This document shows, in pieces, positions 74-57,877 of a stretch of DNA of 64,000 nucleotides. The notes beneath the pieces are model-generated. The model did not search any database, had not been told where the DNA came from, and saw only the letters and a list, made by a program, of their open reading frames with translations. The position numbers and the translations under genes were made by a program. The stretch lies in assembly GCF_002854065.1 (NCBI RefSeq), contig NZ_CP024152.1; one strand, given 5' to 3'. This DNA is from Escherichia coli. Lineage in GTDB: Bacteria; Pseudomonadota; Gammaproteobacteria; Enterobacterales; Enterobacteriaceae. Position 1 is the first letter of the stretch, and each line of letters opens with the position of its first letter.

Positions 74-1228
74 ATGCCGTCTCCACGCATCCGTAAAATG
101 TCCCTGTCACGCGCACTGGATAAGTACCTGAAAACAGTTTCTGTTCACAAGAAAGGGCATCAACAGGAGTTTTACCGGAGCAATGTTATCAAGCGATATC
201 CCATTGCCCTTCGGAATATGGACGAAATAACAACCGTTGATATTGCTACATACAGAGACGTTCGTTTAGCAGAAATCAACCCCCGAACGGGTAAAGCCAT
301 TACAGGTAATACTGTACGTCTTGAACTCGCCCTTCTGTCATCTCTGTTCAATATTGCTCGTGTTGAATGGGGAACCTGTCGTACTAACCCGGTTGAACTG
401 GTTCGCAAGCCGAAAGTATCCTCCGGACGAGATCGTCGGCTAACGTCTTCAGAAGAACGTCGCCTTTCTCGCTATTTCCGCGAAAAAAATCTGATGTTGT
501 ATGTCATTTTCCATCTTGCCCTTGAAACAGCCATGCGGCAGGGCGAAATACTGGCCTTACGTTGGGAACACATTGATTTGCGCCACGGTGTGGCTCATTT
601 ACCTGAAACCAAAAACGGTCACTCACGGGATGTTCCTCTGTCCAGACGTGCCCGTAACTTTCTTCAGATGATGCCCGTTAATCTCCACGGCAATGTTTTT
701 GATTACACCGCATCCGGCTTTAAAAATGCCTGGAGAATAGCCACACAACGACTTCGCATCGAGGACCTGCATTTTCACGATCTACGGCATGAAGCAATAA
801 GCCGCTTCTTCGAACTGGGTAGCCTGAATGTAATGGAGATTGCTGCAATATCAGGACATCGTTCCATGAATATGCTGAAACGGTATACTCATCTTCGTGC
901 ATGGCAACTGGTCAGTAAGCTTGATGCCCGCCGGCGGCAGACACAAAAAGTGGCAGCATGGTTTGTGCCGTATCCTGCCCATATCACGACCATCGATGAA
1001 GAAAATGGGCAGAAAGCGCATCGTATTGAGATCGGTGATTTTGATAACCTTCACGTCACTGCCACAACGAAAGAGGAAGCAGTTCACCGCGCCAGTGAGG
1101 TTTTGTTGCGTACACTGGCCATTGCAGCACAGAAAGGCGAACGTGTCCCATCTCCCGGAGCGTTACCTGTTAACGACCCTGACTACATTATGATTTGCCC
1201 TCTGAACCCGGGCAGCACCCCGCTGTAA
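74..1228 (+). CDS. rci: Shufflon-specific tyrosine recombinase Rci (384 aa)
   Basis: ORF 17-1228; ATG at 74 preceded by GAGG. Tyrosine recombinase motifs ([16 protein letters not shown]) plus a ~110-aa C-terminal extension; position next to the sfx repeat. Confidence 0.8.
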
Positions 1229-13708: not shown

Positions 13709-14998
13709 ATGAGTGCTGAACAGGATGCCGGTAAATCCGGAAAGAAACTGGCTGCCCTGCTTGGACTGGGCAGCATCATCTTATTTGGCGGCGGCTATAT
13801 CGCGTTTTCCAAACTATCAGGGAGTAACAGCGATATGCAGTCAGCCGTGAACATTAACAGTGCAGCAAGCGGCGGAACGCGCAGCGTTACCGAAACGCCT
13901 CACTATCGTGAACTGTTAAGAGCGGATAATGAACGAGGGGCCGCAGCTGCAGCCCGCAATAATCAGACGTTCATTGCCAGTCTTCCACAGGGGCTTGATA
14001 TTCCGGACACTCCGGAAAAGCAACAACAGCCTGCAGCAAAACCGGAAAACTATGCTCATCGCCAGGCTTCCGGCACACCACAGGAGGATCGAGCAGCCAG
14101 TGAAAAACGTATGGAGCGGCTGCAAACGCTGATTGTAAGAATAAAAGATCAGCATCCTGCCGGTAGTACACCAACCATAGCAACGACTATGTGGAATAAA
14201 TCTCCGGCAGAAACAACAGGGCAGAATGGTACGCAGCAATTCGCATTACAGAATGCCAGCCTGTCCACGCCTGTAGCAGAAAAAGGGATACAACTGATAC
14301 CTGCTCTGACCCGTATACCGGCATATATTGATACTGCAGTGGATTCTGATAACCCGTCATCCAAGGTTATCGCAACCATTCCCGCTGGCCCCTGGGCAGG
14401 GGCAACGCTGTTCAGTCCGGGAGTCAAACTGGTGGGTAACGGCGTGGAGATCCATTTCGACCGGATGAGCTGGAACGGCATGGACCTTAAGGTCAATGCA
14501 TATGCTCAACGGGAAGACAACCTGATGTCATCCGTGGCCAGCAATGTGAATACACGCTGGTTTAAACATATCATTCTGCCGTCAGTGTTAGGAGGTGTGG
14601 GCAGTATTGGCACACTTTATAAAGATGCCAACACGCAGGTTATTCAGGGTAACTATGGCACGGTTACCGGACGCGTGGGAATGCCCAGTGGTGAAGCTGT
14701 TGCGGGCGTTATTGCCGGTGGTATGGCGGAAAGAGGAAGTCAGATATTAACCCGCCAGGCAGAAAGTGAGCCCTATAAACAGGTAGAAGTGTATCAGCAT
14801 GAAGTCGTATCAATTCTGTTTGTTGACCCGGTAATGACAAACGACGCCAGGTCATCTTCCCTTTCCAGTGGCATTTCCCCTTCAGTTAATCGTACATCAC
14901 AGGCGGAACAACGCTCGCAGGCACGAATGCAGACAGCCATGGAGCAAAGAAAAGCTGTGATGCAACGTCGGTATGATGAACAACCGGAGACACCATAA
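13709..14998 (+). CDS. traO: TraO (DotG/VirB10-like core component), 429 aa
   Basis: N-terminal TM helix, Pro/Gln-rich linker and conserved C-terminal domain; GGAG RBS. Confidence 0.6.
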   Translation: MSAEQDAGKSGKKLAALLGLGSIILFGGGYIAFSKLSGSNSDMQSAVNINSAASGGTRSVTETPHYRELLRADNERGAAAAARNNQTFIASLPQGLDIPDTPEKQQQPAAKPENYAHRQASGTPQEDRAASEKRMERLQTLIVRIKDQHPAGSTPTIATTMWNKSPAETTGQNGTQQFALQNASLSTPVAEKGIQLIPALTRIPAYIDTAVDSDNPSSKVIATIPAGPWAGATLFSPGVKLVGNGVEIHFDRMSWNGMDLKVNAYAQREDNLMSSVASNVNTRWFKHIILPSVLGGVGSIGTLYKDANTQVIQGNYGTVTGRVGMPSGEAVAGVIAGGMAERGSQILTRQAESEPYKQVEVYQHEVVSILFVDPVMTNDARSSSLSSGISPSVNRTSQAEQRSQARMQTAMEQRKAVMQRRYDEQPETP

Positions 14999-26523: not shown

Positions 26524-26854
26524 AATCAATCCTCTTCATGAAATAAACAATGGCACTCACTTACAAACAGGAGTCCACTATCGCAAGCGACTCAACTTAG
26601 TAATATCTCTCAATTTGAATGAAAAAACCAGATGGCATGTGACAGGGAACCGTCCGCATGATGTCCGTGACCATTTAACCCCATAAACTGATAAAAAATG
26701 AATACCGGTATCTCAATGCGAAGAAATAATCTCCGTAGAATCCCCCATGAGAAAAATATCATATGGGAGAAAATCGCAATTATCACAGCCAGCGCATTCA
26801 TTATTTTCGCTGTCTTCTGGCATTAATTATTTTCAACACAAAAAGGAAAAAACA

Positions 26855-29641: not shown

Positions 29642-30850
29642 ATGTCTTACAATCGACAGCCTGTCGCAGAAGATCCTATGCAGATATGGGGCGCTGTTGG
29701 TGTCCTTCTTATCCTGCTGCTGTTCGTCATATGGTTATTCTTGCCGGAAGTGGTTTACACCAGCTGCCTGATTCTTCATACCTTATGGGGACTGGTCGAC
29801 TGGGGACCATTTCATAACTATGCAGCACCACGATACAACCTGCTTGCCATGACCGGTAACAACGCCGCCAACATAAGCTATAGCCAGTGGGTTAACGTCA
29901 TGGAACAGACCATAGGTATTCTGTGGATGTACCTCTTACCTGTGACACTCTGGTGTTTGTGGGAATGGTATCAACATCCGGGACAAAGCCGTTTCACCCG
30001 CAGACCAGTAGATATTACCCGACTGCCACACATCTTTGCTTCGTTATCCCCTGCTATCGCCCCTGTACTGGCAGATGGTGATCCGAAAAAACTCTTTCAT
30101 GGTGGTAAACGACCTGAACGGCGGGTTGCTCTCACCCCGGAAGCATTTGTCGAACAGCATACTCTCATCACCAATATGCAGCTCGATGTTGCAGCTGCAA
30201 GACGATGTTTCATGGCCCAGTTGGGTAAACCTTTAACGTCCTGGAAAGACATGGCACCACATGAAAAAGCGCTCTTTGCCATATTTGGCCTTCAGTATTT
30301 CCTGGATGATCGGAAGGCAGCATTAAAGCTCATGGATACACTGAACCTCTCATGCAGAATTAAAAGCAAACGGGACAGCGGGAAATTCTGTACCCCTGTT
30401 TATTCACTGGCCAAATCAGCTTTCCAGAGAGTGATTAAAAGCAACGGAGCACAGCAATGGCTGAAACAACATCGCTACGTCCGCAGTGGGCTGGTCTGGC
30501 TGTATGCACATGACCTGCGGCTTACGCCACCCAACTGGATTTGGCTGAAAGGCGTGGACAGAACGCTGTTTTATGCATTACACCGCGCCAATACCACGAA
30601 AGGATTTATTGAAGGCGCTGGCGTGGTGGCCGTTGCACGTGCAGAGGCCGAAGCCATGCGTTTTGGTCTTCCCTGCCCTGAACCCTGTGTTGATGAAGCG
30701 GTGGAAGGCTTACGGCGGGATATGCTCAGTCTCGGTCTTATCTGGGATGAACCACAACCAGATCGCGACCGGAAACGCCGCATCCTGACCAACTGGTCCC
30801 TCACCGACGACATCCTGCCCCGCACACCTGCTACAGACAACGAATTCTGA
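29642..30850 (+). CDS. trbA: TrbA membrane protein (402 aa)
   Basis: GGAG RBS; N-terminal TM helices; size and position match R64 trbA. Confidence 0.65.
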   Translation: MSYNRQPVAEDPMQIWGAVGVLLILLLFVIWLFLPEVVYTSCLILHTLWGLVDWGPFHNYAAPRYNLLAMTGNNAANISYSQWVNVMEQTIGILWMYLLPVTLWCLWEWYQHPGQSRFTRRPVDITRLPHIFASLSPAIAPVLADGDPKKLFHGGKRPERRVALTPEAFVEQHTLITNMQLDVAAARRCFMAQLGKPLTSWKDMAPHEKALFAIFGLQYFLDDRKAALKLMDTLNLSCRIKSKRDSGKFCTPVYSLAKSAFQRVIKSNGAQQWLKQHRYVRSGLVWLYAHDLRLTPPNWIWLKGVDRTLFYALHRANTTKGFIEGAGVVAVARAEAEAMRFGLPCPEPCVDEAVEGLRRDMLSLGLIWDEPQPDRDRKRRILTNWSLTDDILPRTPATDNEF

Positions 30851-39378: not shown

Positions 39379-39385
39379 GTGTTTT

Positions 39386-52797: not shown

Positions 52798-53553
52798 TCA
52801 TCCGCCATAATGCGCCACATTGTCGACTATCCACGCAGGTCCGGTGACTTCCGGCAGCTCATCGTCATCTGTCGGGGAAGACCATTCCAGTTCCCCCCAC
52901 AGCACATCAACAAGCTCTCCGCGCTCATACAACTGCCAGCCACAGAAATCACAGCCCTGTTCGGCGTACCAGTGCTCCAGCGTGCAGCCGAAAAGGCGGC
53001 TTAATTCTGCAACAACGTCGCTCTCCGGCTGACACCACGGCGTGTCGAAATCTACCTGAATGAAGTTTTCCCCCTGACTGCTGATATTCAGGTCATACCC
53101 ACAAGGCCACTTCACGCCATACCGTTCTGTATACCAGTGATATGCAGAAGGAACACCGTTCAGAACACCGCCGTTAAAGCCATTCACTTCAATATCCAGG
53201 CGGGTCGGCAAAACCGTCAGCAGGTCAAACGGCATGGTTTTTTCCGGCAGTACGTTGTCACACAGACGGTTCCACCACACCGATACATCCTCGTTACTCC
53301 AGAAGCCACACCAGTCACCTCTCTTTGCGGTGAAAAGTGCGGTGATGGTATCCCTGACATCGTCCGGTAATCCTTCCCAGCGACGCTGTTCAGTACCGCT
53401 CTGCAGCCAGAGTTCATGCAGCATCAGGCAGTTTTGTTCATCCAGTAGCACACCGTTCTGCAGGTGTGTCAGCCAGCGTGTGAACGCGATATTCTCCGGC
53501 GATACAACACCACGTCCGGCAGCCGTCAGTCCGGGGCACGGTTCAAACTGCAC
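52798..53553 (-). CDS. Hypothetical Trp-rich leading-region protein (251 aa)
   Basis: ORF with GTG start; no recognisable catalytic motif. Confidence 0.4.
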   Translation of the reverse strand: MQFEPCPGLTAAGRGVVSPENIAFTRWLTHLQNGVLLDEQNCLMLHELWLQSGTEQRRWEGLPDDVRDTITALFTAKRGDWCGFWSNEDVSVWWNRLCDNVLPEKTMPFDLLTVLPTRLDIEVNGFNGGVLNGVPSAYHWYTERYGVKWPCGYDLNISSQGENFIQVDFDTPWCQPESDVVAELSRLFGCTLEHWYAEQGCDFCGWQLYERGELVDVLWGELEWSSPTDDDELPEVTGPAWIVDNVAHYGG

Positions 53554-54077
53554 ATCTTCGTGGTCTGCAGAAGTCCGGCACTTCCGGCCAGAAACAGCTG
53601 AATACCTTCATTTGTGGCGCGGCGATAAAACGGTGTGACTGCGCCGCTGGCCAGTCGTTTAATCTCAGCGATCTGTGCCGGTTCACCAGAAAAATACATA
53701 CGATTCGAGCACCAGTTTGGCATGGGAATTCTCCTCTCACATGCGGCCTCCATCAGGCCGTGCCGCACCTGTAACCGGGCGACCGCATACGAATGCAGGT
53801 GCGGCCCCGAAGCCGCAGCGCGTGGAGGAGGAACGACGAAACGTGACCGGGTGAGGAGGCCGGCGACAGCGACACACTTGCATCGGATGCAGCCCGGTTA
53901 ACGTGCCGGCACGGCCTGGGTAACCAGGTATTTTATTCACAGAACCGTGCGCAAAATGCTGTGGATAAGCTGAACACAGCAGTCCACAGCAGGCATACAG
54001 CCACACTCTCAGAGAATTGAGCGCTTTTTAGTCACAATAATGACATTTGACTGTGTGTGGATTCAGTTATTAGAATA

Positions 54078-54093
54078 CTGTATATGCATACAG
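54078..54093 (+). promoter_or_regulatory. LexA (SOS) box at the impCAB promoter
   Basis: CTGTATATGCATACAG matches CTGT-N8-ACAG exactly and sits about 24 nt upstream of the impC start. Confidence 0.75.
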
Positions 54094-54116
54094 CAACAGA
54101 AAAGGGAGATGAGAAC

Positions 54117-54365
54117 ATGATCCGCATTGAAATTCTTTTCGACCGCCAGAGCACAAAAAACCTCAAATCAGGCACACTTCAGGCGCTACAGAATGAAATC
54201 GAACAACGTCTGAAACCACACTACCCGGAAATCTGGCTGCGTATAGACCAGGGCAGCGCCCCGTCTGTATCTGTCACAGGAGCCCGCAACGACAAGGATA
54301 AAGAACGTATCCTGTCTCTGCTGGAAGAAATCTGGCAGGACGACAGCTGGCTGCCTGCAGCATGA
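54117..54365 (+). CDS. impC: ImpC, DinI-like small SOS protein (82 aa)
   Basis: ATG at 54117 with GGGAGATGAG RBS; DinI-like size; first gene of the imp operon. Confidence 0.7.
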   Translation: MIRIEILFDRQSTKNLKSGTLQALQNEIEQRLKPHYPEIWLRIDQGSAPSVSVTGARNDKDKERILSLLEEIWQDDSWLPAA

Positions 54366-54800
54366 GTACCGTTTATCACCGTCCGGCTGACCCTTCAGGC
54401 GATGACAGTTACGTGCGCCCGTTGTTTGCCGATCGTTGCCAGGCCGGTTTTCCTTTCGCCTGCCACTGATTATGCTGAGCAGGAACTGGATCTGAACAGC
54501 TATTGCATCAGCAGACCTGCAGCCACCTTCTTTCTGCGCGCCAGCGGTGAATCGATGAACCAGGCTGGCGTGCAGAATGGTGATCTGCTGGTAGTGGACA
54601 GGGCCGAAAAACCACAACACGGGGACATCGTTATCGCTGAGATCGACGGTGAGTTCACCGTCAAACGACTGCTGTTGCGCCCACGCCCGGCACTGGAGCC
54701 GGTTTCAGACAGCCCGGAGTTCCGCACACTGTATCCGGAAAACATCTGTATTTTTGGTGTTGTCACTCACGTGATACACAGGACGCGGGAGTTACGCTGA
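54362..54800 (+). pseudogene. impA: impA (UmuD-like) interrupted by a +1 frameshift in a T run near 54454-54456
   Basis: The N-terminal 34 codons (MSTVYHRPADPSGDDSYVRPLFADRCQAGFP) are in one frame from the ATGA-coupled start and hit TGA at 54464; the rest (SPATDYAEQ...SGESM...KRL) is in another frame (ORF 54402-54800). The UmuD-type GFPSPA motif is restored by removing one T. Confidence 0.6.
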
Positions 54801-56073
54801 TGTTTGCACTGGCTGATATCAACAGTTTCTACGCCTCATGTGAAAAAGTTTTCCGCCCGGACCTTCGCAACGAACCGGTCATCGTACTCAGCAATAACGA
54901 TGGCTGTGTGATCGCGCGCAGCCCGGAGGCAAAAGCCCTTGGCATCAGAATGGGGCAGCCCTGGTTTCAGGTGAGACAAATGCGCCTGGAGAAGAAAATA
55001 CATGTATTTTCCAGCAATTATGCGCTGTACCACAGCATGAGCCAACGGGTTATGGCTGTTCTGGAGTCGCTTTCTCCCGCAGTTGAGCCCTACTCAATTG
55101 ATGAAATGTTCATTGATTTGCGGGGGGTGAACCGTTGCATCTCTCCGGAGGTTTTGGTCATCAGCTCAGGGAACAGGTAAAGAGCTGGACAGGACTCACC
55201 ATGGGGGTGGGCATTGCGCCTACAAAAACGCTGGCTAAAAGTGCACAGTGGGCAACAAAGCAATGGCCACAGTTTTCCGGTGTGGTCGCGCTGACGGCAG
55301 AAAACCGTAATCGGATCTTGAAGCTACTGGGGCTGCAGCCAGTTGGTGAGGTCTGGGGAGTAGGACGCAGACTGACGGAAAAGCTGAATGCACTGGGTAT
55401 TAACACAGCACTGCAGCTGGCGCAGGCTAACACGGCATTCATCCGGAAAAACTTCAGCGTCATTCTTGAGCGTACGGTACGCGAACTCAACGGCGAGTCC
55501 TGCATATCCCTGGAAGAAGCACCACCGGCAAAACAGCAGATTGTCTGTAGTCGCAGTTTTGGTGAACGAATCACAGACAAAGATGCCATGCACCAGGCTG
55601 TTGTTCAGTATGCAGAGCGGGCCGCAGAGAAACTACGTGGGGAGCTTCAGTATTGCCGGCAGGTGACGACATTTGTACGGACATCCCCCTTTGCAGTAAA
55701 AGAACCCTGTTACAGCAATGCCGCTGTGGAAAAGCTTCCATTGCCCACACAGGACAGCCGGGACATTATTGCCGCCGCATGCAGAGCCTTAAACCATGTC
55801 TGGCGTGAAGGGTACCGCTATATGAAGGCAGGAGTCATGCTGGCTGATTTCACACCATCGGGTATAGCGCAGCCGGGATTATTTGATGAAATCCAGCCCC
55901 GTAAAAACAGTGAAAAGTTAATGAAAACACTCGATGAACTGAACCAGTCGGGAAAAGGGAAAGTGTGGTTTGCGGGGCGAGGAACCGCCCCTGAATGGCA
56001 AATGAAACGGGAAATGTTGAGTCAGTGTTATACAACTAAATGGCGAGATATTCCCCTGGCCAGGCTGGGTTAG
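54800..56073 (+). pseudogene. impB: impB (UmuC-like Y-family polymerase) interrupted by a -1 frameshift in a T run near 55152-55155
   Basis: ORF 54800-55180 (MFALADINSFYASCEKVFRPD...DEMFIDLRGVNRC) and ORF 55135-56073 (FGHQLREQV...) are consecutive parts of a UmuC-like protein in different frames; adding one T to GTTTTG restores continuity. Confidence 0.6.
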
Positions 56074-56074
56074 T

Positions 56075-56491
56075 TCAGTCATCTCCGAACATATTTTCAG
56101 CGTTTCTTCTGGTCTGGTCTTCACCGTCATTTCTCGACAGACTCTGCTCTGTAAGAGGAGTACTGCAATCCACAGACGTATGGAGACCAGATTGTTTTTC
56201 CAGTAATTCAAGCAATTTCTTTTCAACCGAAAAAGCACCTGGTATCACGCTGGAAATCACCTTATTAATATCATCCAGAGTCGTATTTTCTGTCAGTAAC
56301 TCCGATATCAGCAAAGGAAGACGTTTATCTATAGCTGCAAACGCCGCACCAGTAACTAACATCGCGCGCATGAAACGTCCCCGCTCCTTCAGTTTTTCAT
56401 TTGCAATGAGCTCATCTGCTATCTTATCTCCTGTCCGTTCATCCGGGAAAAGTTCAAATGAGCAGCGTCTGGATTTATTTTCATCACTCAT
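56075..56491 (-). CDS. parR: ParR/StbB-like partition adaptor protein (138 aa)
   Basis: Small gene immediately downstream of, and overlapping, the ParM-like gene. Confidence 0.5.
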   Translation of the reverse strand: MSDENKSRRCSFELFPDERTGDKIADELIANEKLKERGRFMRAMLVTGAAFAAIDKRLPLLISELLTENTTLDDINKVISSVIPGAFSVEKKLLELLEKQSGLHTSVDCSTPLTEQSLSRNDGEDQTRRNAENMFGDD

Positions 56492-57720: not shown

Positions 57721-57877
57721 AAGGAATGAAATGGTGAAACTGAGAGGAAAGGAAAGCGGTGACGAATCATGTCACCATAAACAGAAAGATGTCTAATGGG
57801 GACTCTTTAGGTACGTGAAGAATCCCCATAACGCATTTAAAAGACACACATCAGATACCTTTAAGGTATCCGATAGT

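Follow-up and report, generated by a model that had tools for sequence, protein, structure and literature searches.

Clustered one-base frameshifts in the impCAB region of an I-complex plasmid sequence from Escherichia coli

Three one-base indels, one each in impA, in impB and in a neighboring DUF1281 gene, interrupt reading frames in and beside the impCAB operon in the 64,000-nucleotide stretch of plasmid DNA analyzed here (the window). The locus belongs to an I-complex (IncI1/IncI-gamma type) conjugative plasmid and is an ordinary impCAB operon under LexA repression; the operon is already known, and nothing at this locus is new in kind. As the sequence is written, the one-base frameshifts would destroy both ImpA and ImpB, and the polymerase could not be made. 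The lesions are clustered, they are unique among the plasmids compared, and a single-base change restores each imp gene perfectly; we infer that errors in one patch of the consensus of the deposited plasmid record (87,351 bp) are the probable source of the three indels. That some or all of the genes have truly been inactivated, and recently, is a serious possibility, though not the one that we favor.

The impCAB Operon

The impCAB operon was first described on the IncI1 plasmid TP110 (Lodwick, Owen and Strike, 1990, as cited in PMC12211044; PMC10286972); as summarized from earlier references in these two papers, most I-complex plasmids carry it (references cited in PMC10286972, PMC12211044), and imp operons confer UV protection and SOS mutagenesis (literature cited in PMC12211044, PMC10286972). 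In the window the operon occupies positions 54047-56073 (Table 1). As in the impCAB operons of TP110, pTF2 and pMS7163B, the genes follow the order impC-impA-impB, each stop codon overlapping the next start; the impA start lies at 54362, and that of impB, at 54800, overlaps the impA stop codon. In contrast to these operons, the window carries a private one-base indel in each of impA and impB; the repaired ImpA and ImpB are identical to the proteins annotated in approximately 20 of the closest plasmids.

Table 1. Features of the impCAB region, with positions given in the window.
Feature	Position	Strand	Basis or remark
DUF1281 gene by the imp promoter, frameshifted	52798..53699	-	One-base deletion between 53559 and 53560
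imp operon promoter, sigma-70 type	54047..54076	+	TTGACT, 18-nt spacer, TAGAAT; consensus scan 10/12
LexA (SOS) box 2, AACTGAATCCACACACAGTC	54049..54068	-	Overlaps -35 hexamer
LexA (SOS) box 1, TACTGTATATGCATACAGCA	54076..54095	+	Overlaps -10 hexamer
impC, intact, 82-aa DinI-like protein	54117..54365	+	PF06183 DinI 65 bits, cutoff 24.2
impA (umuD-like, S24 self-cleaving subunit), frameshifted	54362..54800	+	ORF table, alignment
impA lesion, +1 T, codon 32	54454..54456	+	TTT here, TT in all relatives
impB (umuC-like Y-family polymerase), frameshifted	54800..56073	+	ORF table, alignment
impB G6 run, intact here	55122..55127	+	+G/-G frameshifts in other read-derived assemblies
impB lesion, -1 T, after codon 118	55152..55155	+	T4 here, T5 in all relatives

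The imp promoter sequence is the same in the reference plasmids (alignment to NZ_AP021916.1 and NZ_CP180602.1), and a predicted LexA box of the form CTGT-N8-ACAG overlaps it, as would be expected of an SOS operon. LexA box 1 differs by one base from the impCAB box TACTGTATATACATACAGCA of the IncI1 plasmid pTF2, which has a heterology index of 1.60 (PMC12211044), and the second box predicted for impCAB in that plasmid has exactly the sequence of LexA box 2 (PMC12211044). In pTF2, SOS induction raises the levels of the ImpC, ImpA and ImpB proteins (PMC12211044). The impC gene has the same DNA sequence as the WP_000618110.1 gene in NZ_AP021916.1; its product scores below the equivalog cutoff for chromosomal DinI (41.1 vs. 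111) and is therefore regarded as DinI-like, not as DinI itself. A preliminary description of this DNA, made from the sequence, had placed an intact LexA box and impC upstream of the damaged genes, and the promoter and box scan, the DinI match and the intact impC reading frame all confirm this arrangement. Its recognition of the impC-impA-impB operon of an I-complex plasmid was likewise correct, as was its advice against annotating impA and impB as intact.

The chromosomal counterpart is E. coli umuDC, which encodes DNA polymerase V (UmuD'2C). ImpA aligns with UmuD residues 16-140 (E = 3e-36; PDB 8gmt_B) and, judging by this alignment, appears to share the conserved cleavage-site and catalytic-region motifs of UmuD; the match of ImpB to the UmuC subfamily model is full-length. 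The imp operon differs from umuDC, its paralogue, in being plasmid-borne and in carrying the DinI-like impC in front. In an intact operon, ImpC would act as a DinI-like modulator, the UmuD-like ImpA would have to cleave itself at a predicted site, Ala28/Gly29, on RecA filaments for activity, and ImpB would serve as the UmuC-like Y-family translesion polymerase.

Frameshifts in impA and impB

The additional T in impA splits the gene into an ORF at 54362-54469 (35 aa) and a second-frame ORF ending at 54800 (ORF listing). As read, ImpA consists of 31 wild-type residues followed by FACH and a stop codon at 54467-54469; this 35-aa product matched no family in a profile search, and the reading frame of impA is interrupted. 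When one T is removed, the gene encodes a 145-aa protein identical to WP_000109071.1, with the join GFPSPATDYAEQ that the preliminary description had foreseen; the repaired protein scores 143.4 bits against NF007621 (cutoff 110) and 85.2 against PF00717 (cutoff 23.3). The cleavage site Ala28/Gly29 aligns with Cys24/Gly25 of UmuD; the frameshift thus follows only three residues after the cleavage site and detaches the whole catalytic domain.

The missing T in impB leaves two ORFs, at 54800-55180 (126 aa) and at 55135-56073 (ORF listing). The N-terminal ORF encodes 118 wild-type residues followed by LVISSGNR, and the C-terminal part runs in another frame to 56073. Here, too, the repair proposed earlier held: one added T joins RGVNRCISPEV to FGHQLREQV and yields a 424-aa protein identical to WP_015058887.1. 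The repaired ImpB reaches 790.7 bits against NF002955 (cutoff 431) over model positions 1-422 of 422, and its IMS palm/fingers, HhH, IMS_C little finger and DUF4113 domains are all found with Pfam. Taken separately, the N-terminal fragment scores 216.7 bits against the same model (positions 1-117), below the cutoff of 431, and the 290-aa C-terminal fragment scores 532 bits (positions 135-422), above it. As read, no single polypeptide combines the catalytic N-terminal domain with the C-terminal thumb and little finger that define UmuC/ImpB. The repaired operon has all sequence-level characters of its family; as read, both ImpA and ImpB lack the uninterrupted ORF.

It is scarcely credible that the frameshifts are functional, with programmed ribosomal frameshifting or alternative starts still giving active proteins. 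A 132-aa ORF beginning at ATG 54402 could supply a pre-activated ImpA'-like protein, and the split ImpB fragments could reassemble; the 132-aa ORF holds ImpA residues 32-145, and with them the region of the Ser64/Lys101 dyad, and scores 131.8 bits against NF007621, above the cutoff of 110, and the score of the C-terminal ImpB fragment given above points the same way. However, neither site offers a slippery heptamer of the canonical kind or an extended A/T run; ATG 54402 is preceded by AGG two bases upstream, which makes a poor ribosome-binding site; the ImpB palm residues on the N-terminal fragment and the thumb and little finger on the C-terminal fragment are carried by separate polypeptides; and the arrangement is conserved in no relative, and hence gives no sign of selection. 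Programmed frameshifting and transcriptional slippage were rejected on sequence context.

A Third Frameshift and the Clustering of Private Indels

The deletion in the DUF1281 gene removes a non-repeated A, changing CTTCAGTGG to CTTCGTGG on the plus strand. This frameshift had been missed in the preliminary description.

A megablast search with positions 54000-56100 retrieved more than 2,200 plasmids with at least 80% query coverage, and the best matches annotate DinI-like, umuD and umuC genes. In global alignments of this segment to NZ_AP021916.1 and NZ_CP180602.1, the only two differences in 2,101 bases are the additional T in impA and the missing T in impB. Over its entire length the window is a near-clone of NZ_AP021916.1 (pWP2-W18-CRE-03_2): the two are co-linear and differ by 11 substitutions and four one-base indels in 63,998 aligned bases. 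After polarization against four relatives (AP021916, CP019996, CP050758 and CP180602), six substitutions and three indels remain as private changes of the window; the fourth indel, at 39385, is private to AP021916. The three private indels fall inside a segment of 1,597 bp, every one of them disrupts a gene, and the sequence between them is free of substitutions; three events placed uniformly in 64 kb would cluster this tightly with a probability of approximately 0.0018. Recombination that brought in a patch of a divergent imp allele was considered as a source of the lesions and rejected, given zero substitutions in 54000-56100 relative to the closest plasmids.

The preliminary description had located both imp lesions in T homopolymers and had named homopolymer sequencing error as one candidate cause. 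The location holds for impB, where a T5 run is shortened to T4, but not for impA, where the wild type has only TT. The proposed cause agrees poorly with the homopolymers of the window: 101 runs are at least 6 nt long, and none of these is altered in comparison to the relatives; the impA site is a TT, and the DUF1281 gene loses a non-repeated A. Of the 5-nt runs of the relatives, all but one have the same length in the window. Systematic homopolymer error of the 454, Ion Torrent or nanopore style was accordingly rejected as the sole cause, with 101 long runs intact and two of the three lesion sites outside homopolymers. The window contains 76 T5 runs.

Distribution of the Lesion Alleles

Each lesion site was searched for with a 61-nt query centered on it, such that one gap lowers the identity to 98.4% and a full-length match at 100% identifies a shared allele. 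By this measure (megablast), the impA insertion is found in 0 of approximately 2,330 other plasmids in PLSDB and in 0 of 1,699 replicons of complete E. coli genomes, the impB deletion in 0 of approximately 2,256 PLSDB plasmids and 0 of 1,630 E. coli replicons, and the DUF1281 deletion in 0 of 3,055 other plasmids. Two pattern scans of metagenomes and of species-representative genomes yielded 55 contigs, of which 54 span the impB run and 52 the impA site; all 54 have T5 in impB and all 52 have TT in impA, and neither lesion allele occurs among them. The metagenome scan accepted T4, T5 or T6 in impB, and all of its 53 matching contigs have T5. In an exact look-up among approximately 15 billion proteins, the 87,351-bp source contig is the only one to encode the 132-aa ORF of frameshifted ImpA or the 65-aa fragment of DUF1281. 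The ENA contig ERZ27229669:k119_130365, which shares a 251-aa DUF1281 product with the window, was rejected as independent support; its site is wild type, and the shared product goes back to an alternative start call.

The impB allele recurs once, in a 1,253-bp Logan contig of SRR26800289 that encodes the 126-aa ImpB fragment. This contig corresponds to positions 54435-55688 of the window, with T4 in impB and the wild-type TT in impA; the impA insertion is also absent from Logan contig L006. The preliminary description had considered that related plasmids might carry the same sequence with functional alternative starts; no such plasmid was found, and only the impB deletion, by itself, is shared with the SRR26800289 contig. 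A literature search for reports of impB frameshifts in IncI1 plasmids returned none.

Other breaks in impB do occur. The G6 run has lost a G in Logan contigs L009, L010 and L014 and gained one in L007, and an IS3-family insertion interrupts impB in CP093082.1 and in Logan contig L008. As in the window, the reading frame in all six sequences is lost within the first 150 codons, and the +G and -G lesions are likewise one-base changes in a short homopolymer, approximately 30 nt from the impB site of the window. These contigs differ from the window in that impA is intact, the DUF1281 gene is intact where covered, and the T5 run is not shortened to T4. As a caveat, L009 and L010 also have deletions in the T8 run of parM, which look like long-read homopolymer undercalls; read-derived contigs are therefore no proof of a real allele.

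Origin of the Frameshifts

The choice between sequencing error and genuine inactivation that the preliminary description offered still stands, stripped of its homopolymer wording and extended to a cluster of three indels. Consensus error in the record is favored by the crowding of three private indels (P ~0.002) into 1.6 kb free of substitutions; by the mixture of indel types (extension of a TT, loss of a single A, loss from a T5), with the long runs left intact; by the impA and DUF1281 alleles, which are seen nowhere else; and by the one-base repairs, which give 100% identity to common alleles and reveal no further pseudogene decay. Spontaneous indels in E. coli favor long runs and are rarer than substitutions. 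The mixed pattern is what would be expected of a long-read or single-pass consensus with locally low coverage, and not of spontaneous mutation or of a platform-wide homopolymer bias. A stretch of poor consensus at approximately 53.5-55.2 kb of the window would have introduced three random errors of +1 or -1, possibly at a low-coverage stretch or a former contig end in a long-read assembly, and the real plasmid would carry intact genes whose products are identical to WP_000109071.1 and WP_015058887.1. PLSDB does not contain the source record, and the RefSeq set of complete E. coli genomes does not either; this absence is compatible with exclusion on quality grounds and is no proof of it.

Several observations speak against consensus error. 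The T4 allele of impB is present in an independent contig (SRR26800289_99), and may thus exist naturally; impB is broken elsewhere, and overexpression of impCAB is toxic (PMC10286972), so that loss of function is plausible. If all three frameshifts were real, which we consider unlikely, the lineage would very recently have lost ImpA, ImpB and the DUF1281 protein through spontaneous indels; selection against the cost or toxicity of an SOS-induced polymerase could have driven the losses, or neutral decay could have followed a first hit. This scenario can draw on the severe growth defect caused by impCAB overexpression (PMC10286972), on the dispensability of impCAB for conjugation (PMC10286972; PMC12211044), on the independent impB breaks by IS3 insertion (CP093082.1, L008) and by G6 frameshifts (L007, L009, L010, L014), on the recurrence of the impB deletion in one other dataset, and on the genuine private substitutions of the window's lineage. 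Yet three indels would have to have arisen independently in 1.6 kb on a tip branch that gained only six substitutions in 64 kb, and two of the sites, the TT and the single A, are poor substrates for slippage. One hit in impA or impB abolishes function and would render the other hits neutral, yet zero substitutions have accumulated; and the impA or DUF1281 allele is found in 0 of approximately 4,000 related replicons.

As the SRR26800289 contig illustrates, the two imp indels may differ in status. A mixed origin, with the impB change from T5 to T4 as a real, recurrent slippage event and the impA insertion and DUF1281 deletion as errors of the record, would account for the occurrence of the impB deletion on an otherwise identical 1,253 bp with wild-type impA, and for the fact that T5 is the only plausible slippage substrate among the three sites; recurrent gain and loss of G in the neighboring G6 run fits as well. 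We nevertheless regard a mixed origin as unlikely: Logan contigs can hold homopolymer undercalls (the deletions in L009 and L010 affect only G6 and T8), the SRR26800289 contig is short, T4 is absent from the 53 metagenome contigs, the 2,256 plasmids and the 1,630 E. coli replicons, and a common cause is suggested by how closely the impB change clusters with the other two indels.

A broader interpretation of real frameshifts, as marks of an active and very recent shedding of the SOS-linked leading-region genes DUF1281, impA and impB by an I-complex plasmid in circulation, appears very unlikely. ImpCAB toxicity could drive such shedding, or a localized burst of frameshifts could arise from error-prone repair synthesis around a break; the short runs of impB, G6 and T5, would then be recurrent off-switches of the mutagenic polymerase.

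Consequences for Annotation

The main value of these results lies in annotation hygiene. The impA, impB and DUF1281 genes should be flagged as disrupted or as "frameshifted; sequence to be verified"; they should neither be silently repaired nor be counted as evidence for the absence of a mutagenic polymerase from the plasmid. Should the lesions be real, the plasmid would no longer provide its host with SOS-inducible translesion synthesis and mutagenesis, and the case would add a modest data point on the dispensability or cost of impCAB in I-complex resistance plasmids, leaving the understanding of the system unchanged.

Private Substitutions of the Window

The private substitutions of the window are atypical of long-read errors and in this respect also speak against consensus error; they show that the lineage has real divergence. 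A search for an informative sister plasmid through the private SNPs found none: the SNP at 26814 is shared with no plasmid, and the SNP at 57860 is shared with six, mostly of unrelated size. One private substitution changes TraO (K140T), and the variant protein (GenBank AUJ98638.1; WP_101969590.1) comes from a single E. coli plasmid contig.

A cluster of one-base changes around the imp promoter

The DUF1281 gene that adjoins the imp promoter is split by a one-base deletion into open reading frames of 57/65 aa and 251 aa; the lost base is a single non-repeated A, present in the four close relatives of the plasmid, and the deletion was found in none of 3,055 plasmids. It constitutes the third private one-base change in this region, and together with the two imp indels (one T gained in impA, one T lost from impB) it forms a cluster of 1.6 kb.

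Within impA, a 132-aa reading frame that begins at an out-of-frame ATG crosses the site of the additional T and thereby enters the ImpA frame; after an unrelated leader of 18 residues it encodes ImpA residues 32-145, which correspond almost exactly to the activated, self-cleaved form ImpA'. Judged from the sequence, its ribosome-binding site looks poor: an AGG that precedes the ATG by just 2 nt.

Features of the window, with the lesions and substitutions that affect them
Feature	Window position	Strand	Remarks
rci-type integrase gene	~74-1228		window bases 1-4 lie upstream of the gene
traO	13709-14998		private A to C at 14127
DUF1281 gene	52798-53699	minus	adjoins imp promoter; lesion at 53559/53560
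132-aa ORF	54402-54800		begins at out-of-frame ATG inside impA
G6 run in impB	55122-55127		precedes the impB T-run by ~30 nt; intact in window

Disruption of impB and singleton indels in other plasmids

Logan contigs assembled from the reads of other samples carry frameshifts in the G6 run of impB, by one additional G in L007 and by the loss of one G in L009, L010 and L014. These changes may represent either genuine mutations at a hot spot or bases undercalled in long reads; L009 and L010 also lack bases in a T8 run of parM. Loss of impB by other routes does occur, since in at least two further plasmids or assemblies (L008, positions 1596-2907; CP093082.1) impB/umuC is broken up by an insertion sequence of the IS3 family. 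Singleton indels occur in polished reference plasmids too: the closest relative, NZ_AP021916.1, carries a one-base deletion of its own (T4 to T3; position 29683, window 39385), not shared by the window, directly 5' of the start codon (ATG) of a gene for a small HTH regulator.

Private substitutions and the start of the window

The private substitution in traO results in TraO K140T; a single contig is known to encode exactly this protein (AUJ98638.1 / WP_101969590.1), and neither PLSDB nor the RefSeq set of complete E. coli genomes contains the record of that contig. The C to T change at 57860, absent from the four close relatives, is common to six other plasmids, which mostly differ in size (45-52 kb and 88.7 kb); this points to homoplasy or a small recombination tract, rather than to error. 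Window bases 1-4 read TACG, versus CGCC in NZ_AP021916.1. Because this divergence falls exactly where the shufflon of NZ_AP021916.1 begins, the window start is predicted to be a shufflon rearrangement boundary, at which the deposited contig possibly starts as well.
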